From an uncultured Candidatus Saccharibacteria bacterium (lineage in GTDB: Bacteria; Patescibacteriota; Minisyncoccia; Phycocordibacterales; UBA6899): a stretch of DNA of 64,000 nt. The notes beneath the pieces were generated by a model that made no database searches, had not been told where the DNA came from, and saw nothing but the letters and a program-made list of their open reading frames with translations. Position 1 is the first letter of the stretch; every line of letters starts with the position of its first letter. The stretch is taken from contig CAYXYK010000004.1 of the NCBI GenBank assembly GCA_964469335.1, positions 101,362-165,361 of the forward strand, written 5' to 3'. The position numbers and the translations under genes are program-made. Positions 6,719-39,600 of the stretch are shown here, one piece after another.

Positions 6719-6732
6719 TGTTCGCCTGCAAG
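6719..6732. promoter_or_regulatory. SOS (Cheo-type) LexA box CGAACAACTGTTCG overlapping the lexA promoter
   Basis: This is a perfect GAAC-N4-GTTC palindrome 23 nt upstream of the lexA ATG. On the coding strand it lies adjacent to a TATACT -10 element. Confidence 0.7.
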
Positions 6733-20897: not shown

Positions 20898-22145
20898 ATG
20901 ACATATAATAGAGAACAACTCATGAAACGCTTGAAGACGAGAGGACGTACTCGGTCCGTGCTTGCGGTGTGCGGCATGCTGCTCTTTACGTTGCCGAGTT
21001 TCGCTTTTGCCGCAAGCTCATTCACGGCTACTCCTGCGGTGATCGACGGCAAAGGGAAGGTGCGTGAGATCCTGCACTATAGTATGACCGTCGTGAATAC
21101 GACCAAGCATCTCGTGACTGTCTATCCGTGGGTCACCGACATCGATACTACCGAAGGGAATTCTGGTTCGAGCGATCTCGCCGGGACGCACGAAAAGGAA
21201 CTTTCGGAGTCACTCGCGCGCTGGATCGAAGTCACTCGCGGCTCGGTCGACCTGCTCCCCGGTGAGCAAAAAGACGTGCCAATCACCATCCAGATCAACC
21301 TCAATGCGAAGCCGGGGGTTTATCATTCCGCCATCCACCTCTCTGCGGGAGGTACACGTCCCGACGCAGAAGCGAACAAGGCCGATACGATGGACGTGCT
21401 TGTGAATATTGAAGTTCTCGATGATATCAACGAGCGACTGCAGCTCAACACCTTCGTTCCTTCGAAGGGGGTATTTGCCAACGAGACTGCTTCTTTCAAT
21501 TACCATATCGAGAACATCGGCAATCGCGGGGAGGTGCCGCACGGCAAGATACGCATCTACGACAAAAGCGGGCGTGAAGTTGCCTCCGTTGATGCCAATC
21601 AGGACGCAAAACGACTTGAGCCGTCATCGAAGTTGATGCTCTCCTCGGTCTGGGCATCAGGGAACAGTTTCGGCCGCTACAAGGCGATGCTCGATCTCGA
21701 GTATGGCGGCCGTGGCACACTCCAAGATACCGTATACTTCTGGGTCATTCCATGGAAGAAATTGCTTGGCATGTTCGTCTCACTCATCGTGCTGTGTGTC
21801 GCAGCCGCCATCGTACTGCACTCATACGGTCAGTCACGTCGCCGCGCACTCGCCGCCGAGACTTCAGAGGGTGGGTGGAGGCTTCCGTGGGGGCGCGATG
21901 AAAGTGAAGAAGAGGATGAAGAGTGGGAGGAAGTCGCCGTGCATCGCGCACGTGCAGTGAAGGAGCTCCGCGAAGTTGAACCTCCCCCTCCTGTCCATAC
22001 CCGTCTCCGCTCCGAGATCTACCACGGAGAGGAAGCTACGCATCTCTCGAATATGCCGAAAGCGGATTTATCCTCGCATAAGGTCATTCTCGGGAAGCGT
22101 GAATCACCGCCCCCGCCTCGGACGCATATCGTGAACCTCAAATAA
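20898..22145 (+). CDS. CscA-like (DUF916/DUF3324-like) cell-surface protein, C-terminal TM anchor
   Basis: The protein has a signal peptide, two beta-rich domains, a C-terminal TM (FWVIPWKKLLGMFVSLIVLCVAAAIVL) and a charged tail. An alternative start at 20922 is preceded by TATAATAGAG. The family assignment rests on architecture and motif resemblance only. Confidence 0.55.
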   Translation: MTYNREQLMKRLKTRGRTRSVLAVCGMLLFTLPSFAFAASSFTATPAVIDGKGKVREILHYSMTVVNTTKHLVTVYPWVTDIDTTEGNSGSSDLAGTHEKELSESLARWIEVTRGSVDLLPGEQKDVPITIQINLNAKPGVYHSAIHLSAGGTRPDAEANKADTMDVLVNIEVLDDINERLQLNTFVPSKGVFANETASFNYHIENIGNRGEVPHGKIRIYDKSGREVASVDANQDAKRLEPSSKLMLSSVWASGNSFGRYKAMLDLEYGGRGTLQDTVYFWVIPWKKLLGMFVSLIVLCVAAAIVLHSYGQSRRRALAAETSEGGWRLPWGRDESEEEDEEWEEVAVHRARAVKELREVEPPPPVHTRLRSEIYHGEEATHLSNMPKADLSSHKVILGKRESPPPPRTHIVNLK

Positions 22146-22146
22146 G

Positions 22147-23454
22147 ATGAAAAGATCCGGCCCACACCAATTCATGTTCATCCTGATCTCGCTTCTTGCG
22201 ATGGTACTTCCGTTTGGAGTCATTGCCGCAGACGAAAGCTCACTCACGATCACAGTCACACCGCCATTGTTCCAGGTTTCTCAGCCGGCCGGCACTGATT
22301 GGCGCAGTCAACTTCGACTGGTCAACAGCAACAATTATGATATTTCCATCACGGTGACTGCGCAGGATTTCCATCCGGACGGAGAGACAGGAAATGCGGT
22401 GTTTGAAGAAGGGGAGAAGGGGACCCCGACGGACTCTCGACGCATGTCCGGTTGGATCGAGGTGCCACCGGGGCTGCTCACGATTAAGCGCGGCAGTACC
22501 GCAGAGATCCCATTTACGATACACGTTCCACCGAATGCTGACCCGGGCGGACATTACGGCGGGCTTCTGGTCAGTACTCGTCCAGGCGACACTGGAGCTG
22601 GGAGTGGCGCTGGTATCTCATCAGGCATTACCTCGCTCATCTTCCTTCGTGTTCCTGGTGACGTGGTGGAAAAGGGAAGTATCAGAGATTTTTATACTGA
22701 AAACAGTGTGATCGAATCCCCTGATGCACGTTTTGTGCTGCGGTTCGAGAATGAAGGGAATGTGCACATTGTTCCACAGGGAGAGATCGTCATCACCAAT
22801 ATGTGGGGGAAGGTCCGCGGCAAGGTAAGCATCAACGAGAGTAGTACCTTCGGCAATGTACTACCGGAGTCAACCAGAAAATTCGAGTTCAACTGGAAAG
22901 AGCTCGACCCGAGCCCATTGGAAGTCGGCCGCTATAAGGCCATTGCGACCATCGTCTATGGGGTTGAGGGTCGACAAACCGTGGAGCGCACAGTCTTTTT
23001 TTGGATCGTACCGTGGAAGCCAGTCGCCTCCATCCTCGGATCACTGTTCTTCTTCATTTGGTTCATTTCCTGGTCGCTCCGACGTTATATCAAGAAGGCG
23101 CTCATGATGGAGCGTGTCCGACTTGGGATGACTGAACAGGAATTTGTCGCATATCGTGGCGGGCCGAAACAGGAAAAGCCTCAGCAGCCTACCTTGACCT
23201 TTTCCGCACTCAAACAACCACTCCGTGCAGCATCACTCAACCTTTCGCAAGACCGGATGACCTCATCACCGTCAGTATCAACACAAAAAAGAAAGAAATT
23301 GAAACCCGGAGTTGTCGCAAAGTTGCGCGCGTATCGCCCGCTGATCATCTTCGTGCTCGTACTAGCAACAGGGATCTCACTCATCAGTTGGTATTTCGTA
23401 GAGGTGTTTCAGGATGAAAGGGCCTACCACGTCGAGCAGATCCGCCCGCGTTAG
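22147..23454 (+). CDS. CscA-like (DUF916/DUF3324-like) cell-surface protein paralog
   Basis: The architecture matches the 20898 gene (FFWIVPWKP + TM + basic tail), and the start is 1 nt after the upstream stop. Confidence 0.55.
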   Translation: MKRSGPHQFMFILISLLAMVLPFGVIAADESSLTITVTPPLFQVSQPAGTDWRSQLRLVNSNNYDISITVTAQDFHPDGETGNAVFEEGEKGTPTDSRRMSGWIEVPPGLLTIKRGSTAEIPFTIHVPPNADPGGHYGGLLVSTRPGDTGAGSGAGISSGITSLIFLRVPGDVVEKGSIRDFYTENSVIESPDARFVLRFENEGNVHIVPQGEIVITNMWGKVRGKVSINESSTFGNVLPESTRKFEFNWKELDPSPLEVGRYKAIATIVYGVEGRQTVERTVFFWIVPWKPVASILGSLFFFIWFISWSLRRYIKKALMMERVRLGMTEQEFVAYRGGPKQEKPQQPTLTFSALKQPLRAASLNLSQDRMTSSPSVSTQKRKKLKPGVVAKLRAYRPLIIFVLVLATGISLISWYFVEVFQDERAYHVEQIRPR

Positions 23455-23577
23455 AACTTTCAGAAATGGGAACCTTCTACTTGCAGGACCCCCCAGTGAT
23501 TCGGTCAACGTACTATGAGTACGTCTTCCTCATCACTTTCCCCGCGCCTTGAATTTTCCTCATTTCTGAAAGTTCTC
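23453..23577 (+). repeat. structured intergenic element, copy B (terminal inverted repeat + conserved core GTCAACGTACTATGAGTACGTCTTCCTCAT)
   Basis: The 18-nt arms AGAACTTTCAGAAATGgg / CTCATTTCTGAAAGTTCT flank a core that is near-identical to 33299..33328. The inner stem gtgat/atcac covaries with atgcaat/attgcat in copy A. Confidence 0.45.
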
Positions 23578-24008: not shown

Positions 24009-25166
24009 ATGAACTATCTTAGTTCTTTCAAACAGCTTTCACGCGCGAAGCAGATTGCTGTGCTGCTCATTGTGAGCACGTTTACATGGGCTGTCGGAGT
24101 TCCAACATTTTTTGCTACCGCTTCTGCGGCGCAACTCTCGCTCGTTAGTGCGACCGCATCGTCGTCTGTCCCTGCAGCAGTCACCAACATGACACTGCGC
24201 TACACCTCGACTACTACAGTTTCGACAGGTCAGACTATCGCGATCCAGTTCAGTCCTGGCCATAATGGTGGCACTGACGAATACAGTCTCGCATCCCTCA
24301 CCGTCAACGATGTTGTCGGACAGGCGGGTGTGACGGTCATTACCGCAGCTTGTGGTGCAGTCACCGCTAACCAGGTCTCAATCTCTGGTGGTATCGCCAA
24401 CGCTGCCGGAAACCGAACCGTCACCCTTACTGCATGTGGTGCAGTCGCTGCGCAGCAGATCACCATCGGATTCATCAACAATCATCTCGTCAATCCGACC
24501 ACGACCGGTTCATACAAGATCACCATCGGCGGCACTCAGACTGACTCAGGAACCGCAATGACCGCCATCCTCAACCAGGTCACCGTCACTGCTTCAGTCG
24601 ACACAACCCTTACCTTCACTGTTTCGGGTGTCGCAGCAGGTCAAAGCATCAACAACGAGCAAGTTTCGACAACTTCGACCGCAGTTGCGATCGGATTCGG
24701 CACACTCGCTTCGGGTACCCCGGTCGTCGCCGCACAGGACCTCACCGTGGCAACAAATGCGCAGAATGGATTCATCGTTACTGTACATGAGGACCAGAAT
24801 CTCCTCTCGGCGAACGGTGCTGATATCGACCTCTTCCAAGACGGAAATGCCGTTGCGACACCGATCGCTTGGGCGACTCCGACAGCAGTGCTTGGAACAG
24901 AAGCTACATATGGCCATATGGGTATCACTAGTAACGACACTGACCTCAATGCCAACGAGTTCTTCTCAGGATCGGTCATCAAATGGGCAGGTAATTTCTA
25001 CCCGACCACCACTCGTACCATCTTCTCAAATACCGGTCCGGCTGATGGTGTAACTCAGAATATCGGTAGAGCACGTGTCGGTTATAAGATCCTCGTCTCC
25101 AACCTCCAGGAAGCCGCAACGGATTATACCAACCACCTCATCTACGTTTGCACCCCGACATTCTAA
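24009..25166 (+). CDS. secreted surface protein with WxL-like C-terminal domain (paralog of the giant-protein C-termini)
   Basis: The protein has a signal/TM, an Ala/Thr-rich beta domain, and a C-terminal ~170 aa (TLTFTVSGVAAG ... PIAW ... VIKW ... YVCTPTF) homologous to the C-terminus of the 1760-aa protein. Confidence 0.6.
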   Translation: MNYLSSFKQLSRAKQIAVLLIVSTFTWAVGVPTFFATASAAQLSLVSATASSSVPAAVTNMTLRYTSTTTVSTGQTIAIQFSPGHNGGTDEYSLASLTVNDVVGQAGVTVITAACGAVTANQVSISGGIANAAGNRTVTLTACGAVAAQQITIGFINNHLVNPTTTGSYKITIGGTQTDSGTAMTAILNQVTVTASVDTTLTFTVSGVAAGQSINNEQVSTTSTAVAIGFGTLASGTPVVAAQDLTVATNAQNGFIVTVHEDQNLLSANGADIDLFQDGNAVATPIAWATPTAVLGTEATYGHMGITSNDTDLNANEFFSGSVIKWAGNFYPTTTRTIFSNTGPADGVTQNIGRARVGYKILVSNLQEAATDYTNHLIYVCTPTF

Positions 25167-25466: not shown

Positions 25467-26525
25467 ATGCAACCTTACAAAAAATTCTTAGCCTTCACCG
25501 TACTCTTCGCAGCGCTCCTCGTTGCGCTTCCATCCGAAGTGAGTGCGCAAGGGAAAGTGAGCTTCAGGCTTTCCCCGACCACCATCGAAGACAAGGTGGA
25601 CCCGGGAGCTGACCGAGATTTCGCGCTCAATATCGAGAATCAAGGCGATGCGACCGCAACACTCTACCCGTCGGCGCAGAACATCACCGGAATCGGTCCT
25701 GACCTTCACCCGATATATTCCTCTGCAAAGGATACAGAAGGATACGCACTTGCGTCGTGGATCACCTATCAAGAGAAAGAGCTTGTTGTTCGTCCTCATG
25801 AACAAAAGACCCTCCACTTCACCGTTCATTTCCCAAAGGATGCTCATCCGGGATCGCATATGGCCGGTGTGTTTTTGAGTGACAAACCTTCAGATGCCAC
25901 CCAGAGCGGATCATCAATCGGCTTCCAGATCGGAGCGATAGTGAATTTCCAGGTCGCAGGGGAGATCATTGAGGATACTCAGATCAGAGAGTTTTACACG
26001 ACAAAGGCGGTGTACAGCAATGCGGATGTGGGATTCACCACTAAGCTTGAGAACAGGGGCAATATCCTGTCTCGCCCGCACGGCCTTATCGACATCACCA
26101 ACATGTTCGGAAAGAAAGTCGCTTCCATTCCGGTAAATGACAATGGCGGCGGTATCTTCCCGAACGGTGTGCGTGAGTTCTCGAGTGTATGGAAGTCCGA
26201 CGATATCCAGCTTGGACGCTATGATGCCGTCGTTGCGCTTGCAGTCGAAGGACAGAATGGAACTCAGACGATCTCGCGTGTACTTCAGTTCTGGATCATG
26301 CCGATGAACATCATTGGACCTATCGTCGGAGGTCTGCTTTTTCTCATCATCCTTGTCTACGTCATCATCAGGCTCTACATCAGGAGTCAGCTCGCCGGAA
26401 TTTCCCGTCCGCGTGGTGCGTCACGCCGCTCTGATCCAGGACTATCGAAGAGTGCTGCGATCGTGATAGCACTGCTTGTCGCGATCATCATCGGATTCGT
26501 TATTTTATTCTTTTACTTCGGGTAA
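25467..26525 (+). CDS. CscA-like (DUF916/DUF3324-like) cell-surface protein paralog
   Basis: The protein has a signal peptide, two beta domains, QFWIMPMNIIGP + TM and a basic tail. It aligns collinearly with the 20898, 22147 and 60879 proteins. Confidence 0.55.
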   Translation: MQPYKKFLAFTVLFAALLVALPSEVSAQGKVSFRLSPTTIEDKVDPGADRDFALNIENQGDATATLYPSAQNITGIGPDLHPIYSSAKDTEGYALASWITYQEKELVVRPHEQKTLHFTVHFPKDAHPGSHMAGVFLSDKPSDATQSGSSIGFQIGAIVNFQVAGEIIEDTQIREFYTTKAVYSNADVGFTTKLENRGNILSRPHGLIDITNMFGKKVASIPVNDNGGGIFPNGVREFSSVWKSDDIQLGRYDAVVALAVEGQNGTQTISRVLQFWIMPMNIIGPIVGGLLFLIILVYVIIRLYIRSQLAGISRPRGASRRSDPGLSKSAAIVIALLVAIIIGFVILFFYFG

Positions 26526-26527
26526 AA

Positions 26528-26648
26528 GCTGTTTCAAATTTAGCGATTATCTTCAGCAAAACAACCACCCGCGACTCACCTTACAATAAGTAAGGCTCGT
26601 CTAGCGAGTGGTTGTTTTGTTTCGCTTCTCATCTAAATTTGAAACAGG
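26528..26648 (+). repeat. long nested-hairpin element immediately 3' of stop codon
   Basis: The outer inverted repeat is GCTGTTTCAAATTTAG / CTAAATTTGAAACAGG. The middle stem is CAAAACAACCAC / GTGGTTGTTTTG. The centre is CCTTACAataaGTAAGG. Confidence 0.45.
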
Positions 26649-26706
26649 TTCGTAAGCTGGCGTCAGTAATGTGAAATAGATTTACTGTTTATGTTACGAT
26701 GAAGGC

Positions 26707-27648
26707 ATGGAAGACCGTGTCGTTCTCCGTCCAACGCGCATCACGTCGAAGCATGTAGGACATCATAATCTTACCCCGAGCGGAGAACCTCCGCGCAGGA
26801 AAAAAAGGAGAAAGAGTAAACTCCTACAAGGTGCATTCATTACTGTTGGAGCGATGGCGATGACGGTACTTATCATACATGCCAGTGACTCGTTCAAGAA
26901 CCCGAACGATCTTGTTGCGGGAGTCGGAGGAGTAGCCGCACCGTCCGCACGTTGTCCGAGCGACATGGTATTCGTTTCCAGCCCAAACGGGGGATTTTGT
27001 ATCGACAAGTATGAGAACTCACCAGGGAAGTCGTGTCCGCACAGTGATCCGAAGAATCAATTCGAAACCAATGACAACATGTCGCAACCACTCTGTGTAT
27101 CGGTCTCTGTTCCTGAGTCCGACCCATGGGTAAATATCCCCGTCACGCAGGCGATGGAGATCTGCACAAGGGGAGGTAAGCACTTGGCGAGCAACGGCGA
27201 ATGGTACCGCGCCGCACTTGGTACTCCTGATACCGTCAACACGGAAATCGGAAGCCCGAATTGCGTACTCGGTCGCATCGGCGTGAGTCATGGAGAGAAG
27301 ACGGGGAGTCATAGTGCATGCGTTTCTTCTGTTGGGGCTTTCGACATGGTCGGGAATGTCTGGGAATGGGTCGACGGAAACATTGTGAACGGTATATACG
27401 AGAAACGCGATCTTCCGCGCGAAGGGTTCATTACGGAGACAGACGTCGATGGTGTCCCAGTGTCTGTTGCAAGTTCTTCTTCCGAAGTATTTCACGGTGA
27501 TTATTTCTATATCAAGCGGGACGGGGTCAGCGGAATGCTTCGCGGCGGATTCTGGAATCTCTCGGAAAAAGCTGGGGTAGCGACGGTGAATGCGACCATC
27601 CCGACGACGTTCGTTGGTAGTGCTGTCGGCTTCCGTTGCGCCAAATAA
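26707..27648 (+). CDS. membrane-anchored FGE-sulfatase (SUMF1/EgtB/PvdO-like) domain protein
   Basis: A basic N-terminal tail and one TM precede FGE-type motifs (GEWYRAALG, DMVGNVWEWVDG, LRGGFW, VGFRCAK). Confidence 0.75.
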   Translation: MEDRVVLRPTRITSKHVGHHNLTPSGEPPRRKKRRKSKLLQGAFITVGAMAMTVLIIHASDSFKNPNDLVAGVGGVAAPSARCPSDMVFVSSPNGGFCIDKYENSPGKSCPHSDPKNQFETNDNMSQPLCVSVSVPESDPWVNIPVTQAMEICTRGGKHLASNGEWYRAALGTPDTVNTEIGSPNCVLGRIGVSHGEKTGSHSACVSSVGAFDMVGNVWEWVDGNIVNGIYEKRDLPREGFITETDVDGVPVSVASSSSEVFHGDYFYIKRDGVSGMLRGGFWNLSEKAGVATVNATIPTTFVGSAVGFRCAK

Positions 27649-27650
27649 GA

Positions 27651-27686
27651 AAGCGTAGGAATAGCGATCTATTCCTACGCTTTGTT
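27651..27686 (+). terminator. hairpin terminator
   Basis: The hairpin AAGCGTAGGAATAgcgatcTATTCCTACGCTTtgtt has a perfect 13-bp stem. Confidence 0.55.
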
Positions 27687-27750
27687 AGAGACAGCATGAA
27701 CGCCAATTCATATTGCGGAAGAGTGAAAATCGCCGTAAAATTAAGGAGAT

Positions 27751-28194
27751 ATGGCAGATACAACTCCGACAGCACCCGTATATCGATTCCGTTATGCGAC
27801 GCTGATTATTGCGATCGTGATTTTCGGGCAGTTACAGTTGCCACACGTTTCCTTTTCGCAGATGGCAAGTTCCGCATATCAGAATCTTGCGAACGTCTCC
27901 TCGATCAATGCAGCGGTTCCACCGAACGAATACAATACGCTTGCGCAGCAATTTTCTGAAAAAGACCGTGAACTCACCGCTCGAGAGCAGGAGCTGATTG
28001 CACGAGAAAAGGCGCTCGATGCGAAGTATCAGGAAGAGATCGCGAGCACCAAACGTACGACACTGCTGACCATTCTTGGTGCGACAGTCATACTGATACT
28101 TCTGATTTTGGCGAATTTCTATTTTGATATCAAGCGGGAAGAGGAACGTGAGCGGGTGCTCAGGGCCGAACGAGGCGAATCTTCTCCCCTATGA
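27751..28194 (+). CDS. hypothetical bitopic coiled-coil membrane protein
   Basis: The protein has an N-terminal TM, a Glu/Arg-rich coiled coil, a second TM and a basic/acidic tail. Its stop overlaps the next start (ATGA). Confidence 0.45.
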   Translation: MADTTPTAPVYRFRYATLIIAIVIFGQLQLPHVSFSQMASSAYQNLANVSSINAAVPPNEYNTLAQQFSEKDRELTAREQELIAREKALDAKYQEEIASTKRTTLLTILGATVILILLILANFYFDIKREEERERVLRAERGESSPL

Positions 28195-29114
28195 GTCAGC
28201 GTGTCGTACTCAAGCCCGTTCGTGTCTCTTCTCGTCAACCCGATGCTCCGAGAAGAAAGAAGAAGCACAATAATCTCTGGAAAGGGATACTTGTCGTGCT
28301 TCTCTCGACAGGTCTCACGACACTTGCGATCAAGGCGAGCGACTCGTTCGAGAATCCCTCTGCACTCATTGCTGGAGTCGCGGGTTCAAAGCAGGCACAG
28401 GTCGACACGCATTGTCCTCCAGAAATGGCATATGTCAGTACTGCGGAAGGTGGATATTGCATAGACAAATATGAAGTATCCGCAGGGGATACCTGTGCTC
28501 GTACCGATCCTGCAAATGAATTTGAAACCCAAGCGGATCTTACTGACCCGAAATGTCTCCCGGTCTCACAGGTCGGGAATCCACCATGGGTGAATGTCCC
28601 GCTTCATCACGCTATGGCGATCTGTGCGAAAGTAGGGAAACGACTTCCAACCAACAAGGAATGGTATCGATCGGCAATAGGCACACCTGACAATGTGCAA
28701 TCGGACGATCCTTCCGCGTGCGCGCTTGGAAAGACCGGGCAAACGCATTCCGAGCCGACTGGGGTGCGATCAGCATGCGTGTCGTCATTCGGAGTCTATG
28801 ACATGGTCGGCAACGTATGGGAGTGGGTCGACGGACAGGTCGAAGACGGAAAATACGGAAGCCGCTTCCTTCCGAACGACGGTTATGTCGATGAAGTTGA
28901 CGTCGATGGTGTGCCGACCAAAACCGCGACCACATCCGATCTCGCGTTCGGGGAAGACTACTTATTCGTCGATCATTCGGGGGTACGAGGGATGATCCGT
29001 GGAGGATTCTGGTCGCTCAAGGAAAAAGCCGGCATCTTTGATATCAATGCCACCATTCCCACCTCCTTTGTCGGCGATGCGGTGGGATTTCGCTGTGCAA
29101 AAGACGCAAGCTGA
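28191..29114 (+). CDS. membrane-anchored FGE-sulfatase domain protein (paralog)
   Basis: The protein has the same motifs as the 26707 gene (KEWYRSAIG, DMVGNVWEWVDG, IRGGFW, VGFRCAK). The two proteins align collinearly. Confidence 0.75.
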   Translation: MSQRVVLKPVRVSSRQPDAPRRKKKHNNLWKGILVVLLSTGLTTLAIKASDSFENPSALIAGVAGSKQAQVDTHCPPEMAYVSTAEGGYCIDKYEVSAGDTCARTDPANEFETQADLTDPKCLPVSQVGNPPWVNVPLHHAMAICAKVGKRLPTNKEWYRSAIGTPDNVQSDDPSACALGKTGQTHSEPTGVRSACVSSFGVYDMVGNVWEWVDGQVEDGKYGSRFLPNDGYVDEVDVDGVPTKTATTSDLAFGEDYLFVDHSGVRGMIRGGFWSLKEKAGIFDINATIPTSFVGDAVGFRCAKDAS

Positions 29115-29190: not shown

Positions 29191-30903
29191 ATGAGGTCTT
29201 CGCGTATGTTCACACGTATACTTTTGTTTTTCGTCGTGGCACTCACCGGGACACTCTTCCTCCCGGATGCGGTCGTTGCTGGTCCGACATATTTCACTAG
29301 TGATTTGATCACCGACTCGACACCTGCGGGCACGTCGACAACGCATACGGTGACGTTCAATCCGGGTCTCGCGATACCGACTGCTGGAAAGATCATGATC
29401 ATTCCTGAGCCGAACGGCGGAGGGGTATTCACTGTTCCTCCCGCACTCAACCTTGCTGATATCACACTTGAAGTATCCGCAGGAGGAGGACCGTTCGTCG
29501 CGCGTCCGCTTGCGCTTCTTCCTTCGGGTGTCAGCGACGGGGTGACAGTCACCACAGGTGTGAACGGTTTCATCACCTTCGACCTCGCGACCGGTGTTCC
29601 TGGGATCGCCGCGGGCGACACGGTAAAAGTCACAATAGGCGGAGCGAACTTCATCACTTCGCCAGCGGTGCAAGGTTCCTATCGTATCCGCATCCGTACG
29701 TTTGACGCTGCGAGTCTCCCACTCGATGTCGGAACCGCGATGATCGCCATCGTCGAACGGGTCACCGTCACCGGCGACATCCAGGTCATCGTTCCACTCC
29801 GCTCGAACGGTTTGCCGACGGGCCTCCTGCCTGGTGCGACAACGAATGTCCTAGTTTCCTTGAACACTGACATTCCTGCATTCTGTAAATATGCGACGAC
29901 TTCAGGAGTCGATTTCTTCGCGATGTCGTCGACGACGATATTCCTCGACGCGAATGCGGGGCTCCTCCATTACATCAATGTGCCGGTGTTCGAGAACGAT
30001 ATCTTCACATACTACCTTCGCTGCGTGAGCTCGAATGGTAATCCGAATCCCGATGACTACGTGATCACATTCGAGATCGGTGTCATACCGAACGCATCGA
30101 CAACGCCCCTCCCTCCGCCTCCGCCCCCGACTCCCTCAGGTCCGTCGGGTGGTGGCGGGGGAGGAGGGCTGTTCCTCAAGGGCGGAGATGTCACTATTTC
30201 TGGTACAGGAATTCCGGGCGGCGCACTGACCATTCTCAAGGACGGTAAGATCGCAAAGGAAGATCAGGTCTCCGTTACCGGCTCGTTCACGAACGCATTC
30301 ACTCAGCTCGACCGCGGTACGTATACGTGGGGAGTCTACGTGAAAGACCCTGACGGTAATCTCTCCTCGACCTACAATTCCACGATCTATCTCATCGGCG
30401 GTACCAACAATATCATCGCACCGGTTTACCTCTCTCCGACCATCAAGGCTGCCACTACGACGGTGCCTATCGGGGGATCGCTCCTGATTTCCGGCTACGG
30501 TATCCCGCTTACCACGGTGCAGGCGATCATGAACAAGCAGGGAGATGTGCTGAACTCGAAGATCATCACCGGGACGACCACATCGAACGGGAACGGTTCA
30601 TGGAAGATGGTGCTTTCGACCGAAGGACTAAAGAAGGGAACCTATGAAGTGAAGGCACAGTCGCTTGTGACGACCAGGGACCAGAGCGTCTTTTCCCCGA
30701 CCCTCTACATCGGCGTAGGCGAGAACCCCAATCCGAATTTCAAGAATCGCGCAGATCTCAACAAGGACGGCAAGGTCAACTTGGTCGACTTCTCTATCTT
30801 GCTTTTCAATTGGAAGACGAGTGATGCGGTCGCTGATATCAATCAGGATGGGACGGTGTCGCTGATCGACTTTTCGATCATGCTCGCCAACTGGACCGGC
30901 TAG
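29191..30903 (+). CDS. secreted multi-domain protein with C-terminal type-I-like dockerin
   Basis: The protein has a signal peptide, beta domains, a Pro-rich then Gly-rich linker (PPPPPPTPSGPSGGGGGGG) and Ig-like modules. It ends with the two-segment dockerin DLNKDGKVNLVDFSILLFNW ... DINQDGTVSLIDFSIMLANW. Confidence 0.75.
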   Translation: MRSSRMFTRILLFFVVALTGTLFLPDAVVAGPTYFTSDLITDSTPAGTSTTHTVTFNPGLAIPTAGKIMIIPEPNGGGVFTVPPALNLADITLEVSAGGGPFVARPLALLPSGVSDGVTVTTGVNGFITFDLATGVPGIAAGDTVKVTIGGANFITSPAVQGSYRIRIRTFDAASLPLDVGTAMIAIVERVTVTGDIQVIVPLRSNGLPTGLLPGATTNVLVSLNTDIPAFCKYATTSGVDFFAMSSTTIFLDANAGLLHYINVPVFENDIFTYYLRCVSSNGNPNPDDYVITFEIGVIPNASTTPLPPPPPPTPSGPSGGGGGGGLFLKGGDVTISGTGIPGGALTILKDGKIAKEDQVSVTGSFTNAFTQLDRGTYTWGVYVKDPDGNLSSTYNSTIYLIGGTNNIIAPVYLSPTIKAATTTVPIGGSLLISGYGIPLTTVQAIMNKQGDVLNSKIITGTTTSNGNGSWKMVLSTEGLKKGTYEVKAQSLVTTRDQSVFSPTLYIGVGENPNPNFKNRADLNKDGKVNLVDFSILLFNWKTSDAVADINQDGTVSLIDFSIMLANWTG

Positions 30904-31026
30904 CAGTTCGAAATTGAGCGAAATACTTCGTTGAAACGCTGTTGAGCGCCTCGCCTTACACGGAGTGAGGCTCGGCCTGCTCTACAGCGTTTCGCCTTGT
31001 ACTTCATCTCAATTTTGAACTGCTAG
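30899..31026 (+). repeat. long nested-hairpin element overlapping the stop codon
   Basis: The outer inverted repeat is GCTAGCAGTTCGAAATTGAG / CTCAATTTTGAACTGCTAG. The centre is CCTTACAcggaGTGAGG, the same core as at 26578. Confidence 0.45.
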
Positions 31027-31224: not shown

Positions 31225-31731
31225 ATGAGTTCGTTCTTACAAAAACTGAAAGGAAAAGGTGTCGGAGTGACGGAAGACCACACAGCCGAGCCTGTGCATT
31301 CACAGAAATCCGATGTTCCCTCGGGTGTGACGCAACTGCCGGTCGACGTGCAGCAGAGTGATACCGAGATCATCATCTACGCGCAAGTCCCGGGTACCGA
31401 GATCAAGGACCTTGATGTGTCGATCGAGGGTGACAATGATGTCATCACCATCCAGGGTACATCGCGCAGACCCTCGGAGCTTGTTGGCGGTAAATCCGAA
31501 GAGGAAAGTGCCGTCATCATCAAGCAGGGTCGCGTCGCAGGACACGAAGACTTCACGCTCGAAGAATGCGCGTGGGGGAAATTTTTCCGCCAGATCATCC
31601 TTCCCCAAGAGGTTGATGCGGCATCAGCTCAGGCAAAAGTGAAAGATGGCGTGCTCGCGCTTCATCTTCCTCTCAAAGGTCATGCTACCAACAAGATGCG
31701 CATGCATGTCGAGCGCGTCGATTCTGTATAA
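31225..31731 (+). CDS. Hsp20/alpha-crystallin family small heat-shock protein
   Basis: The protein has the ACD core (DVQQSDTEIIIYAQVPGTEIKDLDVSIEGDNDVITIQG ... FRQIILPQEVDAASAQAKVKDGVLALHLPL). Confidence 0.85.
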   Translation: MSSFLQKLKGKGVGVTEDHTAEPVHSQKSDVPSGVTQLPVDVQQSDTEIIIYAQVPGTEIKDLDVSIEGDNDVITIQGTSRRPSELVGGKSEEESAVIIKQGRVAGHEDFTLEECAWGKFFRQIILPQEVDAASAQAKVKDGVLALHLPLKGHATNKMRMHVERVDSV

Positions 31732-31746: not shown

Positions 31747-33261
31747 GTGAGTCCGTGCGCGCGCGACCATAGTATGCTGAAATCCTTCACGAGAATAGAT
31801 TTGCCCAAGTTCCTTCTCGGAGCGGTTTCGATTTTTTTCATACCGACTTTTGCGCTCACACAGACAGGAGCATCACTTTCTATCTCTCCGGACAGCGGGA
31901 CGTTCGCGGCGGGGAAGACATTCACCGTCAATATCGTCATCGATTCTGCTGATGGGTTCAATACCGGCAACGCGACGCTCAACTACGACCCTGCGGTACT
32001 CTCTGCGACCGGCGTCTCGAAAGGTAGTTCCGCTTTCTCCCTCTGGGCGGTCGAGCCTTCATTCGACAACAGTAAAGGTACGGTCAGTTTCGAAGGTGGG
32101 AATACCTCACCTCTCACCGGCAAGAAGACCATCCTTTCCGTCAGCTTCAGGGGCCTCACTGAAGGAAAGACTGACCTTTCGTTCTCGGCAGGTTCCGTGC
32201 TTGCGGCGGATGGAAAGGGTACCGATATTCTCGGTGCAAAGAACGGTGCCTCTTTCACGATAGGAGCAAAAGAGCTTGCAGTTGAGCCGCCTCCCGCACC
32301 TCCTGCAGCGCCGACAGACACTGGTGGAGGAGGGGGCGTGAAGCCCGACGCTCCTATCGTTTCTTCTCCGACACACTCCGACGAGAGTCTGTACTACAAT
32401 GCGAAGAAAGCAAAGTTCACTTGGGATCTTCCTCCGGATGTCACGGTCGTGCGACTCGCGCTCGACACAAGCGGAAGTACTACTCCAACGACGAACTATG
32501 ATCCCGCGATCAGCGAAAAGGAATTCGATCAACTCACCGACGGAGTGATGTATTTTCATTTGCGATACAAGAACGACGGCGGATGGGGTCCGGTCACACA
32601 CAGGAAGATCATGGTCGATCGTACTCCGCCTCCGGCGTTCGAGGTTGAAGCGACCACGGATGCGTCATCGTCGGATGTCATTCTTAAGTTCTCTGCCACA
32701 GATACTCTTTCGGGTATAGATCATTACGAACTGACCGTAGACGGCGGGACTCCGGTGAAGGCCTCACTTGCCGAACTTCTTTCGGGAGAATACAACTTGA
32801 CCGGTCAAGAATTGGGTGACCACAAACTTAAGGTCGCAGCTTTTGATAAAGCGGGGAATGCGGGTGAAGGAGCAGCAAATTTCAAGATCACCTACGACGC
32901 AGAGGCGGCAAAAAAAGGACTCGACGAGGGAGAGGCGAAGCCCACTGATTGGCGACTGATCATCGATATCGTTCTGGTCGCGTTCATCGCATTCCTGCTC
33001 GGGTATCTGTGGTATGAGCGCGGTGCGTTCCTACATGAGAAATATGTCTCGAAACGCGAAGCGGACGAAGTGCGCGACAATCTTGGCAATATCTTTGCTG
33101 CTCTCCGTGAAGAGGTGGGAGAGCAGGTCACCTATCTTTTCGACAAGCCCAATCCCTCTGCACTCAACAGGGAAGTGCTTGGGAACATCAATGAAGCGAT
33201 TGATCTCTCGGAAGAGCTACTCTCCAAAGAAGTTGAGGACGTTCGTAAGTTACTTTCGTAA
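31747..33261 (+). CDS. membrane-anchored cohesin-domain protein (scaffoldin-like)
   Basis: A signal/TM precedes a cohesin-like domain (LSISPDSGTFAAGKTFTVNIVIDSADGFNTGNATLNYDPAVL ... FSLWAVEP ... GTVSFEGG). A Pro-rich linker, Ig/Fn-like domains, a C-terminal TM (LIIDIVLVAFIAFLLGYLWY) and a cytoplasmic acidic tail follow. Confidence 0.7.
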   Translation: MSPCARDHSMLKSFTRIDLPKFLLGAVSIFFIPTFALTQTGASLSISPDSGTFAAGKTFTVNIVIDSADGFNTGNATLNYDPAVLSATGVSKGSSAFSLWAVEPSFDNSKGTVSFEGGNTSPLTGKKTILSVSFRGLTEGKTDLSFSAGSVLAADGKGTDILGAKNGASFTIGAKELAVEPPPAPPAAPTDTGGGGGVKPDAPIVSSPTHSDESLYYNAKKAKFTWDLPPDVTVVRLALDTSGSTTPTTNYDPAISEKEFDQLTDGVMYFHLRYKNDGGWGPVTHRKIMVDRTPPPAFEVEATTDASSSDVILKFSATDTLSGIDHYELTVDGGTPVKASLAELLSGEYNLTGQELGDHKLKVAAFDKAGNAGEGAANFKITYDAEAAKKGLDEGEAKPTDWRLIIDIVLVAFIAFLLGYLWYERGAFLHEKYVSKREADEVRDNLGNIFAALREEVGEQVTYLFDKPNPSALNREVLGNINEAIDLSEELLSKEVEDVRKLLS

Positions 33262-33367
33262 CTGGCAAATTTCGTCGTTGCGGGTCCCATGCAATTCAGT
33301 CAACGTACTGTGAGTAGGTCTTCTTCATTGCATTTCCCGCGCCTCGAACTTTATCCAGTTATGAAAG
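33252..33367 (+). repeat. structured intergenic element, copy A (core GTCAACGTACTGTGAGTAGGTCTTCTTCAT)
   Basis: The flanking inverted repeat is CTTTCGTAACTGGCAAATTTCG / CGAACTTTATCCAGTTATGAAAG. The inner stems are gcggg/cccgc and atgcaat/attgcat. The core differs from copy B at only 3 of 30 positions. Confidence 0.45.
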
Positions 33368-33645
33368 AACTTGAATAAGTATTTAAAATTTTCCAATCAA
33401 AATTTGAGGGAAAAATCAATAATTTTTTGCACATTTTTTCTGAAAAAACGCTTAGATGGTAAGAATTTTTTCAAAGTGCAGTGAGATGCAAAAAAATCTG
33501 TGGACAACTCGTGTTGCTTCCACGAAAGCCCTCAGTTGAGCCATGGTTTAAGAGCGATTTTAGCCCTATTTGAAGCCGTATTTTGGCTTTTTTCTGGTAA
33601 AATTAAGCCTAGCCAATCCTTTTTGGAGGAGGGGTGTGTATTTTC

Positions 33646-36600
33646 ATGTACCGACGCCTACGAACCTATGCACGAAGAGTGATTCACGCGTTTTCAACGC
33701 GCACGAGAGTCGCCTCAACCCTACTTTTTCTGGTACTCAGCGGATGGCTTGTATCGCAGTTCGTTCTTGCCCAGAAGGAATTGAATGTCTACATCTTTCC
33801 GTCCGCAGTGACGAGTGATGGATGGAACGACGATATTCAATCGCTCAGCCAGGATCTTTCTCCTGACGCAACGCTTGCGAATTTCACTACACTCAATTCA
33901 GCATCCGTTTCGTTCGGGTCTCTGGGCGCGGCTCCTGTCGCGACCTCATCGGTTCCCGGCGTGCCCACACCATCAGAAAGCGATCTGAGTACTTCGCTTG
34001 AGAACGTACTTCCTACTACCCCGTCTGTGGTGCCTACTGCACTCCCACTCAACGGCAACGATGAGCCGATCCTCGTTCCTGCAGTGGGAGAGGCGACCAC
34101 ATCTTCGGTGATCAGTCTTCCTAATCCCTTCGTTCCTGTCACGCCGCTACCTGAGAGCATCACTGCCTCATCTGCACAATCACTAAATCTATTGCCGGAT
34201 ATTCTGACCGATTTATTTGGCGTGAAGAAAGTGCTTGCACAAGAGCATGCTTCAGCGACGCCCAATGTGAGTGTGTCCGAGACTACGACCCCTGTTGTGA
34301 TGAATCAGGAAGGAAATGCCAGTGCCACTTTGCCAACTGTACCGGAACCTTACGTCCCCACCCCGATGTCGGCTGATCCCTATTCTGTCGCTTCATGTAC
34401 GACACTGGGACTCACATGCCACCTCATGACCTTCGTCGGGTTCGGGCTCGGAGATGCCTTCTCATCCCACCCGCTCACTTCAGCGACACTTGAGCTTTCT
34501 GTTGCGGGTCGTTCAGAGCTTTCCGCCCTGCAGCATGACCGATTGTTGGTTCGTGTATTCCATGCAGGTCGTTGGGAATTCCTTGGCGAAACTGAGATCA
34601 AGGGTGAACTTTCGAATGCAAAACGCGGAGGCTACCTTTCGTATGATCTTCCTGAGATCGCTGATTGGAAAGACCTTTCGGACATGAAGGTTGTTGTTGA
34701 GTATGCGCGCGAAGGTGAAGGGAATGCATCGCTCCTCATCGACGGTGTGTGGGTGAATGCGAAATACGGTACTGATAGCATCTCCGCCGATGCGACACCT
34801 GAAGAGATCGCGCTCTCGCAGTCGAACGTACGCAGTACTTTGTTCGCAAAGGACGCAGAAGATCGAAAAGTGAGACGTGACATCCTTGATACTCCGGAAG
34901 GAAGGGAGATCGCGCTTATGCATGCGGATGAGCACGACGATGCGGACATCATCATCAAGACCGACAAAGAGATATATCGCACCCTCGGGAATACCTCTGC
35001 ATACTTCAATGTCACCAACCAAAGCGACAAGGAACAGGTCGTTCGGCTGCAGTTCCATTTTCCTGAGGGTGGCGGCGGAGTTGCATCATTGTCCCGCCTT
35101 TCTCGCTCAGTCCCGTACAAAGTAAGTAATCTGAAATACGATTCCGTCGGTTACTTCTGTGCAAGCGGATGGCAGAGCGCCTCGTCGACCGACACGAAAG
35201 GATTTACTTGTGTTGATATGAATGAGACCCGATCTTGTGATGCGCTCAACGACGATAAGACGAACTGTATCGTCAGTGGTGCGCGAGTCGGGCTCACAGA
35301 AGACATCGAATATCGTGACGGATGGGTTCCTAGCGCTCTTCTACAGGGCTCGTTCCGTGATGATGCGGGCATCTTCGCCAAGGCGATCGACCTCATTCTC
35401 GGTAAGTTGCCTTCGGGAGCGATCCCTCCTTCTGAACAGCCGGTCTCGTACATCGAGAATTCGGTACTTCTTCTCCCGGGGCAGACTGCATACCTTCGCG
35501 CAGATCTTGCGCTCCCACTCAATGGACGCGGGGATTTCTATATCGAGGGAGCAACGGAGAGCGGTGCGTACGGTCTCGTTCATGCCGCATGGGATGGTTC
35601 ATGGAACTACCGTGTGCCCGTTGATATCGATAACGAGAAAGTCGAGACTGAAGACTCGTATGCCGTCCCGGTGTCGCTCGACTCGCTTCCGCTCGCATTC
35701 TGGGACAGGGTCAACGCGGACGGCTCGGATGTCCGTTTCGTTGACGAGACCGGGACGCAGGAACTCCCGTACTGGCTCTCTTCGTGGAAATACGAAGACC
35801 GAAAAGCATTCGCCTGGGTGCGAATCCCGAAGACGAGCAATTCGACCACTACGCGCATCTATGTGTACTACGGTGATCATAGTGCCGCTTCCCGCTCGTC
35901 GCTCACTGCTCCGTTCCGTACCGATAGGCTCACTTCGCGCGCGGTGATCGCAGGCTCGAGTCAGCATGATATGACACTACTCGCAATCGCGCTCGATGAA
36001 GATACGCACATCCAAGCGGGGGAGCATGAGCCAGTCACTCTCAAGAAGGGAGAGACTGCACTCTTTGGGTCGCTCGCACCGGGCGATGTAGTCCAAGCTG
36101 ATGGGCCGATATCTCTTTCGCTTGAGTCGAGCGGTTCAGGTGCGACGGTCGTTCCATACGGATATACTGGCGGCAATTTCGTTATTCCGGGAATCGGCGG
36201 TGAGCGCATCCTTTCGATGACTGCCGTCGAAGATGGTGAGGTGCACACGGAGCTCAAGCGAGGGAGTGCTACTTCGACAACTCTCGATCCGATTGCAGGG
36301 ACGATCGTTTCGGATACGGTGGATCTCGACAGTTCGATCCGTGTCGATGCGGCAAGTGATGTCATGGCACTCCTTTCTGCGGGGGATGGCACGCGCCTTA
36401 CCCCGCTTTATCCGTCGACCGATGAACCGCTTTATGGTTTCATGCTCGGAAAGACAGTGGTTGGATTCGGAACAGACGGATCGACGATGAAGGCGGTGTG
36501 TGCCGGAGGTGCGGTCAAATCCGCCGACGGACGTAGAGACGGCATGATGACCGTCCTCGATCATTGTCAAAGTTCCGTTCTTCCTTCGCTCGCCGACGCA

Positions 36601-39600
36601 GTCCGTATCAGTGAGTTGGCGAATCCCGCGTCGGTGTTGTCCCTCGGAGGAGAGATGTTTACGAGTTTCATTCCGAAAAGCGAGTTCGCTTCTTCATACG
36701 TGCTCGCCGAAGATGCCGGGACTCTCGCATTCATTTGTGCTCCCGAGGACGGTACCATCGATATCGGTGTTTTCGACGCAGGTGGCGCGTTCACTGCATC
36801 CACCACTTGTGAAGCGCGCGGTGCACGACCGGGCAAAGCACTGATCGAAAGCGCGAACGGTTTCCATGCCGGATCGATCGTCCGCTCTCTCGATGCGACT
36901 TCTACAGTGTTCATGGCAGCATATCAGGCGCTCGGACGTTCACTTGCTTCAGGTGAAGTTGCACCACTCACCACACTTTACGGAGCTCCCCAGTTACGAT
37001 CGCATTCACCGAACCACCCGAGAGTGACCACTGGCGAAGAGGAATTCGTGATTCCCGGCGAACACCGCAAACTCGATCTGGACGAGGAGGGGAAGGAACG
37101 TGTACATGTCGATAAGTTGCTCACTACTAAGCGTGAGTTCTCTGTACACGAACAGCCGGGATTCCAGTTCCAGTACACTCCGCAATCGAATTCGGTGGTC
37201 CAAGGAGTGAGAGGAGCGTTCGGTGTCGCGCAATTCTCGGTCACGAAGGTTTCCCTTCGTCATGCGCAGATCGGAGAACTGGAAGTCGAATATGACATCG
37301 GATATGGAGATGACAATATCTGGTCGCTTTCACTCAAGAATGTCGATGGTCATCTCCGCCCCGGGAAGTACACGCTCCATGTGGAGATCGAAGAAGGAGG
37401 AAGCACATATGTCGATGAGTATGATTTCTACTGGGGAGTACTTGCGATCAATTACAACAAATCGATGTTCACTCCCGGAGAGACAGCCAACATCTCGATC
37501 GGGGCACTCTCGGATAACGGCAATACGATCTGTGATGCGATACTGAAACTTTGGGTCACTCCTCCTGGAGGCACGGAGATCGAACTCCCTGTGTCGGCAT
37601 CCGGACTCTGCGACGGAAACAATGTTGTCGATGTGCCTGATTATTCATCCAGCTATTCCTTCTCCAGCGAGAATGCAACAGGTACGTACAAGGTGAAGTT
37701 AGTGCGCTTCGACAGAGAAGGAAATATCGCGAGCCAAGTGACAGACACCATCTCAGTCAAAGATTCAGTCCCTTTGAGTATCGAACGCGAAGGACCGACA
37801 CGCATCTATCCTGTAGCACATTATCCGATGAAGATCCGTGTTACCGCAAATGAGGATTTCAAGGGTAATATCATCGAACGCCTCCCCGGTGATTTCGTCG
37901 TGATTGATCGAGGAAGTGCGGAGCTCGCATGGGGAGACAGTGAGCATAGCTACATGACCGCAACATGGCCGGTCGACATGAAGAAGGGTGCTGTCGTGAC
38001 TTTTGCATACGAGTTTGATGCACCCGATCGCTCTCCGTATCTTTATGAACTCGGACCAGCAAGCACAGACGGAGACGTCGTATTTTCTGAAGCGCGCAAA
38101 TGGCAGATCGCTTCGGACGCAGCCGGGAAAATGATGATCTATTGGGACCGTACCTATACTCCCTCTGGGTGGACATGCATCTCATGTCTTCCATCCGATG
38201 TGTTCTACAATCGTTTTGCGATGGGGTCATCGACATATGGCGGGTTCGGTGGGACGGCGACCCACACACCGACAGCTTCCGCGGCAGTCGCGTCATTCGG
38301 AGGTACGGGTGTCGGACCAAACACAACCAATAACACCAACAACGCTCCTCTCGGACACACCCATACATTGACTCCACAGATTTCTGGAGTATCGAACCTT
38401 CCCACCTACAGACAGCTCGCAGTCCTGCAATCCAATAGCGCAGGCGACCCGGCTTCGATCCCCGGAGGAGCGATCGTCATGTTCGATATTGCATCATCGT
38501 CGCTACCGTCCGGTTGGTATCGCTACACTCCACTCGATGGCCGTTATGTGAGAGGACAATCAACGAGCACGACAGGTGTGACTGGAGGAGCGAATACCCA
38601 CTCGCATACTGCGACAGGCACACTTTCTGTAGCGATCGGGTCAGGACTTCGCGAACAGAACGGAGTGGTGAACGGTGCAACTGACGTGAATCACACCCAT
38701 ACCCTTTCCGCGACGAACACCGATGTGCTTTCGAATGAGCCGCCGTATGTTGAAGTGCTGTTTGCGCAGCAACCGGCGACGTCGACACCGGTCAATTATA
38801 TGCTCACTATGTGGGAAAATACCCCGCCGAGCGGATGGACGACACTCTCAGATCCGGGAGGTCCGCTCGAAGGGAAGTTTCTCAAGGCATCTACGACCTA
38901 CGGACTGACCGGTGGTTCGGCGACACATGCCCACGCGGATATATTCGGGGCGACCACATCGGTGCAAAGTCTTCTGAATAACTACACGGCAAACGTATCG
39001 AATGCACAGGCTCCTGCAGCACATACGCATACTGTTGACATCACTGGTTTTTCCACCGATGACCATCGACCTCCATATGTCGAGGTGATCTTCGCGAAAC
39101 GCCTCTCGGGGGTCACATTGTGGACACAGCAGCAATATCGCTGGTACTCAAACACGAACGCGATCACTCCGGTCGACCCATGGCCACCGACAGGAGGTGA
39201 TCTCGGAGAAGATTCGGCGATCGACGGCGGCTCACTTGCTGTTCGGGTCGGTGATGTGCTCAGACTTCGCATGTCGATACTCGCGATGAATTCGACCTCA
39301 ACTGTCGGAAGTCAGGCGTTCAAGCTTCAGTATGCCGACTCGCTTGATTGTCCGAGTGCGCTCAATTGGGACGATGTCGCTCCGATGTCTTCAACGACCG
39401 CAGAGTGGCGAGGGTACAATAATGGCGCTGTGGCCGATCGCGCGACGCTTCCGTCCACACTGCTCACGCTTTCGAATATCGCAGAAAGTTATACCGAAGA
39501 GAATAACTCTACCAGTACCTCCGTCGAGATCGGAGTCGGGCAGGCAGGTGAGTGGGATTGGGTGCTGCAGTCGAATGTTCCGCTTCCGGGTACCAATTAT

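Follow-up and report, generated by a model that had tools for sequence, protein, structure and literature searches.

Paired FGE-fold proteins lacking the catalytic cysteines lie within a conserved surface-protein gene cluster of Patescibacteria

The stretch of DNA analysed here, referred to as the window, comprises 64,000 nucleotides of contig CAYXYK010000004.1 (positions 101,362 to 165,361) from an uncultured Candidatus Saccharibacteria bacterium, a member of the Candidate Phyla Radiation (CPR, or Patescibacteria). Within it lie three consecutive genes on the plus strand. The outer two encode proteins with a domain of the formylglycine-generating enzyme (FGE) fold and are called FGE-A (26707..27648, + strand, 313 aa) and FGE-B (28191..29114, + strand, 307 aa); the gene between them, TMCC (27751..28194, + strand, 147 aa), encodes a small protein with two hydrophobic segments. 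All three open reading frames (ORFs) are found where an initial annotation, made from the letters alone, had placed them, and its description of the outer two as paralogs is borne out by their 50% identity over the full length (BLASTP E 1e-115). The same annotation had proposed that FGE-B is translationally coupled to TMCC, in agreement with an ATGA overlap at 28191-28194, where the TMCC stop runs over the FGE-B start. TMCC itself is preceded by an AAGGAGA ribosome-binding site.

Both FGE-fold proteins begin with a basic, K/R-rich tail, followed by a single hydrophobic segment (aa 39-57 in FGE-A and aa 29-47 in FGE-B, by hydropathy) and an ectodomain of approximately 230 aa of the PF03781 type. 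The hidden Markov model (HMM) for PF03781 (FGE-sulfatase), on which the initial annotation had made its domain assignment depend, scores 32.2 bits in FGE-A (aa 134-312) and 60.3 bits in FGE-B (aa 89-304) against a gathering cut-off of 23.3, so the assignment stands; the domain is also present in all 120 homologs among the matches listed. The GNVWEW motif ascribed to both paralogs was located at aa 216 in FGE-A and aa 207 in FGE-B. An AlphaFold2 model of FGE-B, computed from an 85-sequence alignment (pLDDT 89.4), consists of a helix (residues 29-52), a disordered linker (53-72) and a compact domain (73-307). When searched with Foldseek, the model retrieved the FGE/C-type lectin fold, with TaqVP, a variable protein of a diversity-generating retroelement (DGR), as the top match, followed by FGE, Mtd, ToxD, CalU17, pFGE, EgtB, PvdO and PorK, and with TvpA matched too. 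The match probability was 1.00 for human FGE, pFGE, TaqVP, EgtB and PvdO; that the TM-scores reached just ~0.4 is explained by the reduced domain and by a query that still contained tail and helix. Two features set the family apart from canonical FGE domains, a shortened N-terminal part and an insert of about 50 residues between GNVWEW and RGG.

The hydrophobic segments of TMCC span aa 17-35 and 105-123 (hydropathy). In the part that separates them, an alignment of 11 orthologs revealed conservation of PNEYNTLA and, after it, of the charged helical sequence EKxxELxAREQxL; in the same alignment N122, D126 and R129, at the second transmembrane (TM) segment, are invariant. Scans against Pfam and NCBIfam gave no family match above cut-off for this protein. 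Of its earlier description as a two-TM coiled-coil protein, the two segments are confirmed, and the putative coiled coil rests on the conserved charged stretch.

For the FGE-fold proteins, the predicted layout of basic tail, one TM segment and ectodomain is likewise recovered, with the reservation that the TM segment could instead be a long cleavable signal peptide. The segment ends in a conserved A-I-x-A-S-D junction (aa 54-60 in FGE-A, aa 45-51 in FGE-B), which fits the rules for signal peptidase I, cleavage being conceivable between I/A-x-A and S-D. At the same time, the hydrophobic segment and the junction (LTTLAIxASD) belong to the better conserved stretches of the protein apart from its core motifs, and (R)VVLKP at the extreme N-terminus is common to the closer relatives. 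This relative conservation of the segment and of the N-terminal motif suggests that the anchor is retained, and we consider it most likely that FGE-A and FGE-B stay attached through the N-terminal helix, in which case the linker of approximately 20 residues would keep the domain near the membrane surface. The junction and (R)VVLKP also recall long Gram-positive signal peptides with a conserved n-region motif.

Copper binding and activity of aerobic FGE depend on a pair of cysteines in the active site (Cys336 and Cys341 of human FGE) (PMC4505483; bioRxiv 10.1101/2021.05.21.445229). Conservation of this pair, which the initial annotation had left to an alignment with FGE, was not found. The copper-binding cysteines are located in the loop from RGG to GFRC, where profile alignment places the CHESYC of T. 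curvata FGE opposite SLKEKA of the FGE-fold family; independently of any alignment, the 26-residue RGG-GFRC segment holds no Cys in FGE-A or FGE-B. Nor does it in 84 of the 85 aligned family members, the 85th not fitting the search pattern. With the catalytic pair missing in both paralogs and across the family, assignment as a genuine FGE was rejected. FGE-A has eight cysteines (positions 83, 98, 110, 130, 153, 186, 205 and 311), the invariant cysteines of FGE-B are C75, C90, C102, C122, C145, C177, C196 and C302, and exactly eight are present in 80 of the 85 family members. C145 and C302 of FGE-B presumably belong to the motifs in which human FGE has its Cys218-Cys365 disulfide. Given the even number of cysteines and the exported location of the domain, the eight residues suggest four disulfides, one of them equivalent to Cys218-Cys365.

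Signatures of the other enzymes built on this fold were looked for as well. No column of the ectodomain in the family alignment exceeds 45% His, so that a conserved His is absent, and there is no DinB-type domain, the N-terminus consisting of a tail of about 30 aa and one helix. NCBIfam models for EgtB, SenA, OvoA, PvdO, GldK and GldJ scored 14-26 bits against cut-offs of 350-500. Membership of the EgtB/OvoA/SenA group was rejected because the scores fall far under the cut-offs (TIGR03440, 26 versus 360; NF041186, 24 versus 420; TIGR04344, 20 versus 400) and because the DinB domain and the His triad are missing. PvdO was discarded with 13.9 and 23.1 bits for NF051459 (cut-off 500), pyoverdine genes being absent from the window, and PorK/GldK/GldJ with 15.5 and 14.7 bits for TIGR03525/TIGR03524 (cut-offs 350 and 458). 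A lipobox is absent, as no Cys occurs in the N-terminal segment of FGE-A or FGE-B, and the window lacks type IX secretion system genes too. The reported absence of a sulfatase gene from the window was corroborated: six-frame ORFs of at least 80 aa contain neither a PROSITE sulfatase signature nor CxPxR-x4-TG, and the scanned window ORFs gave no Pfam sulfatase match. Judged by their sequences, FGE-A and FGE-B are members of the PF03781 fold superfamily that lie outside its characterised enzyme families. The suggestion that they are Cu- or Fe-dependent modifying enzymes is disfavoured by the missing catalytic Cys, the lack of a conserved His and of DinB, and the low NCBIfam scores. The ectodomain is well conserved, with 31 invariant positions and a mean column identity of 45% in the family alignment; the invariant acidic and polar residues include D92, E95, E157, D204, N208, E211, D256 and R270.

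In a profile search of 1.84 billion representative proteins, 181 reached E <=1e-30. The ~60 that rank highest consist of this one domain and measure 260-315 aa, as FGE-A and FGE-B do. Further down come secreted proteins of 500-2000 aa in which the domain forms the very C-terminus, and a few in which it is present more than once; those sampled end in RGGxWxxGxxAGxFxLxLxxxPS...GFRC, and the FGE-type Cys pair is absent there too. Such terminal or repeated placement on large secreted proteins is typical of binding modules and is also seen with ligand-binding C-type lectin modules. The best PDB sequence match is human pFGE (E 2.8e-7 with the single sequence, 3.9e-10 with the profile), and PorK was detected by the family profile at E 1.9e-5, besides its Foldseek match. 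The other option raised in the initial annotation, a lectin-like binding module, fits better, given the fold match to TaqVP, the sequence match to pFGE and the C-terminal placement of the domain in the nearest relatives. Among the homologs and loci with a source name are ones of Candidatus Giovannonibacteria, Paceibacterota, Falkowbacteria and Kaiserbacteria, and the subfamily is restricted to CPR/Patescibacteria-type genomes, an assignment that rests on the source names of homologs and loci.

The annotation had missed the main context of the three genes, a CPR surface-protein cluster of approximately 40 kb that is conserved across divergent genomes and of which they are a fixed part. We collected 17 distinct loci encoding FGE-fold family members with 36-65% identity, through a scan of contigs (for relatives with <=44% identity among the matches listed) and a search for encoding contigs (for closer loci), and compared their ORFs with the window proteins. 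As far as each contig extends, a single gene series is common to 16 of the 17. It starts with a secreted protein of ~1,500-1,800 aa, two paralogs of ~415-475 aa, a secreted protein of ~385 aa and a further paralog of ~352 aa, and it continues with TMCC, 1-3 FGE-fold genes, a dockerin protein of ~570-610 aa, HSP20, a membrane cohesin protein of ~490-610 aa and a giant protein, the orthologs of which measure 3,600-6,300 aa, contain DUF2341 and occupy the same closing position. The exception (locus L002, 43% identity) has a single FGE-fold gene beside a subtilisin-type protease and glycosyltransferases.

Of the 16 loci with this series, 14 have TMCC adjoining the FGE genes (BLAST), in three gene orders: TMCC-FGE, FGE-TMCC-FGE and FGE-FGE-TMCC. 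In one locus (L089, 10001-12278), for instance, TMCC stands after the FGE genes, and another (L012, 10004-11666 and 14942-15742) has three FGE copies. The variation in copy number and order points to repeated local duplication and rearrangement in an otherwise fixed cluster. That TMCC stays linked to the FGE genes regardless of order, and that it overlaps FGE-B by ATGA, makes the strongest case for a joint function of TMCC and the FGE-fold proteins.

In the window, the cluster opens with a secreted protein of 1760 aa (15607..20889, + strand), for which the Pfam scan was empty and BLASTP showed two relationships: aa 1587-1760 align with aa 200-385 of the 385-aa protein g385 (31% identity, E 1.6e-8), and aa 1217-1406 with the giant protein (37% identity, E 5e-26). 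Its gene contains an internal duplication of about 1.74 kb (16257-16981 versus 17997-18724, 73-77% identity). Two paralogs of 415 and 435 aa follow (20898..23454, + strand), both composed of a signal peptide, an Ig-like ectodomain and a TM segment at the C-terminus, and then g385 itself (24009..25166, + strand), a secreted protein with two beta domains (AlphaFold2 pLDDT 89.6). Both domains of g385 recur elsewhere in the cluster, the C-terminal one at the C-terminus of the 1760-aa protein and the N-terminal one in the dockerin protein. The g385 family, large and well conserved, gave 403 matches and is annotated only as hypothetical; the 120 matches listed are 44-88% identical, except for one identical copy. 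Foldseek yielded only generic and partial Ig-like matches (MSCRAMM adhesins, BslA and the TasA fibre). We regard g385 as a candidate major structural subunit.

Directly upstream of FGE-A lies the third paralog (25467..26525, + strand, 352 aa), with hydrophobic segments at aa 7-25, 282-300 and 331-349; PF06030 scores 24.4 bits in this protein against a cut-off of 27.3. It shares 25-29% identity with the 415- and 435-aa proteins. PF06030 (WxLIP_PGBD) is matched by 14 of the 27 members of this family, with a best E of 3.5e-9, and the family profile matches E. faecium WxLIP1 (EfmWxLIP1; PDB 9i25_C and 9i1y_A) at E 1.6e-6. On these profile matches, the three paralogs, all with a signal peptide and a membrane helix at the C-terminus, are homologs of the WxL-interacting protein (WxLIP) of Firmicutes, which is made up of a DUF916/PGBD domain, a second Ig domain and a C-terminal TM segment. 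None of the 11 g385 orthologs gave a Pfam match at E <=0.1, and the PDB sequence search with g385 was empty. The C-terminal motif TLTYVATPTF of g385 is reminiscent of WxL, but with the HMM and PDB sequence searches empty and the fold matches only generic, g385 was not filed as a WxL-domain protein.

Directly downstream of FGE-B, a position that its orthologs share in following an FGE gene in the cluster loci, is the gene for a secreted dockerin protein (29191..30903, + strand, 570 aa) with C-terminal repeats that match PF00404 (Dockerin_1, 34.3 bits). HSP20 (31225..31731, + strand; PF00011, 42.6 bits) and a membrane-anchored cohesin protein (31747..33261, + strand; PF00963, 32.7 bits; TM segment at aa 404-422) come next. 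The cluster ends with the giant surface protein (33634..52308, + strand, 6224 aa), which has two DUF2341 domains and an Ig_Rha78A_N domain and whose gene contains internal repeats of ~2.3-2.4 kb. HSP20 is the best conserved gene of the cluster, with 96% identity to its counterpart in a syntenic locus (L001) versus 64-79% for its neighbours; it lies inside the surface cluster in the related loci that reach far enough downstream, an odd place for a cytoplasmic chaperone. A second secreted protein with a dockerin domain is encoded at 61922-63124. From their domain matches, a cohesin protein and two dockerin proteins in a CPR genome would imply a surface cohesin-dockerin tether outside the cellulosome context. 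The remaining genes of the window are as would be expected of a CPR genome with many large surface proteins. Away from the cluster, at 4839-6897 on the minus strand, a gene for a LexA-like S24 peptidase stands beside one for a Y-family (IMS/DinB-type) DNA polymerase, in what looks like a compact SOS-type module.

The spaces between the cluster genes contain several structured elements. The intergenic region upstream of FGE-A (26526..26706, + strand) folds as RNA with -68.7 kcal/mol (z-score -8.3 versus shuffles) and includes a near-palindromic hairpin of ~125 nt (26526-26650) directly 3' of the stop of the 352-aa WxLIP-like gene. A perfect 15-bp hairpin (27650..27683, no strand assigned), recovered by the terminator-like scan and by self-complementarity, directly follows FGE-A and, judging by its position, is a possible terminator or attenuator separating FGE-A from TMCC and FGE-B. 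The third long near-perfect hairpin (30900-31022) comes directly after the dockerin gene. All three may be terminators or mRNA-stabilising elements. A 74-nt direct repeat (23499-23572 and 33294-33367, 80% identical) has its copies 33-45 nt 3' of the stops of the 435-aa WxLIP-like gene and the cohesin gene; the syntenic locus L001 does not have it, and it may represent either a small mobile repeat or a 3' element that the two genes have in common. Scans of the window for tRNA and with Rfam found nothing, and the promoter scan was not above shuffle expectation.

Collectively, these results lead us to favour, with moderate confidence, a reading in which FGE-A and FGE-B have no catalytic role and serve a conserved CPR surface apparatus as a subunit for binding or scaffolding, probably together with TMCC. 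The FGE-fold proteins would be exported in an N-in/C-out orientation, with the domain close to the membrane on its ~20-residue linker, and the domain would bind a partner rather than catalyse a reaction. A product of the cluster that is leaving the Sec channel may be this partner, or else a cell-wall glycan or polymer. FGE-A, FGE-B and TMCC may form a complex through their conserved membrane segments and act as a membrane-level scaffold of the surface structure encoded by the cluster, the parts of which would be the three WxLIP-type anchors, the small and large secreted proteins, the dockerin protein, the membrane cohesin and the giant adhesin-like protein. More tentatively, and with low confidence, we propose that the ~40-kb cluster might encode an undescribed CPR-specific apparatus for host-cell attachment, in which the FGE-fold proteins and TMCC provide a membrane base that receives, holds or assembles a fibre or adhesin complex. 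Such a complex could be assembled from g385, the 1760-aa protein, the giant protein and the cohesin and dockerin proteins, held by the WxLIP-type anchors.

Several observations weigh against a binding or scaffold role tied to this apparatus. The invariant acidic and polar residues, D92 through R270, could reflect an unrecognised catalytic or Ca2+-dependent function, and a new metal site made of two of the eight cysteines is conceivable. The junction at the end of the hydrophobic segment could be a true signal-peptidase site, so that the FGE-fold protein would be released and not anchored. The exceptional locus L002, as far as its gene content tells, suggests that the FGE-fold domain does not strictly depend on the cluster. 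Since the FGE copy number varies from 1 to 3, an obligate FGE-A/FGE-B heterodimer is unlikely, and conserved gene order among related CPR genomes is no proof of physical interaction.

The first of these points leads to a rival that we regard as rather unlikely yet worth keeping in view, namely that FGE-A and FGE-B are a new extracytoplasmic enzyme on the FGE scaffold, which would modify the secreted proteins of the cluster on their way out of the membrane, for example by oxidation, cross-linking or glycan processing, with residues other than the FGE Cys pair. The fold is known to host unrelated enzymes (FGE, EgtB, OvoA, SenA, ToxD and CalU17), and many invariant acidic or polar residues, the eight invariant cysteines, the tight linkage to genes of large secreted substrates and, in the predicted structure, a domain that would sit near the membrane on a short linker all agree with such a role. 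Yet the loop that is catalytic in FGE has no Cys, a conserved His and a DinB domain are both absent, and most of the invariant residues belong to the generic structural motifs of PF03781 (IDxYE, RLPTxxEW, GNVWEW, RGG and GFRC); in the closest relatives, moreover, the domain stands at the end of large secreted proteins or is repeated in them, as is typical of binding modules and not of enzymes. A genuine SUMF1-type FGE, activating sulfatases encoded elsewhere in the genome, is extremely improbable. It is invoked by the PF03781 matches above cut-off and by the label that the JGI gives to an identical protein, 'formylglycine-generating enzyme required for sulfatase activity', but it is contradicted by the loss of both catalytic cysteines in the paralogs and the family, by a window without a sulfatase signature and by a best PDB sequence match to the inactive pFGE.

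Binding, too, can be pictured differently. The proteins might be outward-facing lectins or adhesins, released after signal-peptide cleavage, that bind glycans of the cell that hosts the CPR bacterium. The C-type lectin fold with receptor-binding DGR proteins as its top matches, the resemblance of the x-A|S-D junction to a signal-peptidase I site, and adhesin-like neighbours with dockerin, cohesin, Ig and DUF2341 domains are in line with this. We nonetheless consider it improbable: the ectodomain is well conserved, with its 31 invariant positions, across lineages that presumably have different hosts; the equivalent of the DGR-lectin variable region is not especially variable; conservation of the hydrophobic segment and the N-terminal tail would be unusual for a discarded signal peptide; and if the protein is anchored, the ~20-residue linker holds the domain beneath the wall. 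The top Foldseek match to TaqVP, along with those to Mtd and TvpA, also evokes DGR variable proteins with a hypermutated C-terminus, all the more as DGR targets with the FGE/C-type lectin fold are reportedly common in CPR bacteria and the arrangement RGGxWxxGxxAGxF...GFRC in the closest relatives resembles DGR variable regions. However, this explanation is very unlikely. The window contains no template repeat, the only repeat touching the FGE genes being the paralogous GNVWEW region (70% identity); no reverse transcriptase was found in the scanned window ORFs or in the gene lists of the related loci; and the C-terminal segment is conserved between orthologs. With neither template repeat nor reverse transcriptase found, a DGR target was rejected.

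According to the residue checks, the automatic pipeline labels 'formylglycine-generating enzyme required for sulfatase activity' and 'SUMF1/EgtB/PvdO family nonheme iron enzyme' mislead for all of this CPR subfamily. A life on the surface of other cells is generally assumed for CPR bacteria, yet few components of the machinery on their own surface have been identified. Genes that have remained linked in divergent CPR lineages are concrete candidates for such components, and the cluster as a whole is a more interesting object than the FGE-fold pair. It also extends WxLIP-type anchors, so far found mainly in Firmicutes, to CPR bacteria. A full-text literature search returned no paper linking FGE-sulfatase or WxL with Patescibacteria. 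Non-catalytic FGE-fold proteins are already known, and the CPR subfamily differs from them in three ways: a single reduced eight-Cys domain behind an N-terminal hydrophobic helix, a small putative membrane partner with two hydrophobic segments, and fixed membership in a cluster with WxLIP, cohesin-dockerin and giant proteins. None of the three is described in the literature searched.

The known systems most reminiscent of the cluster are the WxL clusters of Firmicutes, which encode one WxLIP with a small and a large WxL protein (PMC10599100). Like them, the cluster in the window combines WxLIP homologs with small and large secreted proteins (385 and 1760 aa) that have a C-terminal domain in common. 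Unlike them, it has three WxLIP paralogs and additional genes for FGE-fold proteins, TMCC, cohesin, dockerin, HSP20 and the giant protein, which are not described in PMC10599100. As the common C-terminal domain is not recognisable as WxL, the context is WxLIP-containing and WxL-cluster-like, rather than a WxL cluster proper.

With regard to the domain itself, copper-dependent FGE/SUMF1 (human, 1y1e; T. curvata, 5nxl; S. coelicolor, 2q17) has the fold and the RLPTxxEW, GNVWEW, RGG and GFRC motifs in common with FGE-A and FGE-B, which differ in lacking the CxxxxC copper site, in their shortened N-terminal part and in having no sulfatase partner in the window. The fold is also shared with pFGE/SUMF2 (PDB 1y4j), where GNVWEW and GFRC are kept and which we take to lack the catalytic Cys pair. 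pFGE is a soluble eukaryotic protein of the endoplasmic reticulum lumen that associates with FGE and sulfatases; it is without the N-terminal hydrophobic anchor, the ~50-aa insert after GNVWEW, the eight-Cys pattern and the surface-cluster context of the CPR proteins. The DGR variable proteins (TaqVP, 5vf4; Mtd, 1yu0-4; TvpA, 2y3c) are binders, not enzymes. TaqVP has a similarly large insert from GNVWEW to RGG-W, and the closest non-anchored relatives of the FGE-fold family show the C-terminal layout of these proteins, whereas the family itself has no template repeat or reverse transcriptase and its variable-region equivalent is conserved among orthologs.

For a structural role, a precedent is provided by PorK, GldK and GldJ, in which a non-catalytic FGE fold is a structural part of an envelope machine encoded with small membrane proteins in the same operon. 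These are outer-membrane lipoproteins of type IX secretion and gliding in Bacteroidota, whereas FGE-A and FGE-B are without a lipobox and CPR cells are taken as monoderm. If the cluster does encode a CPR-specific attachment apparatus with these proteins at its base, the FGE fold would have been put to structural use, much as in PorK, by a lineage that is monoderm and episymbiotic. For binding, Tsi3 offers an FGE domain that lacks the catalytic Cys, the His triad and DinB and engages in protein-protein binding outside the cytoplasm (bioRxiv 10.1101/2021.05.21.445229). Tsi3-type proteins are immunity proteins of Gram-negative bacteria encoded beside a toxin effector, and the window has no effector or type VI secretion system genes. 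The scaffold role that we propose would thus parallel that of PorK in type IX secretion, and the binding role those of Tsi3 and pFGE.

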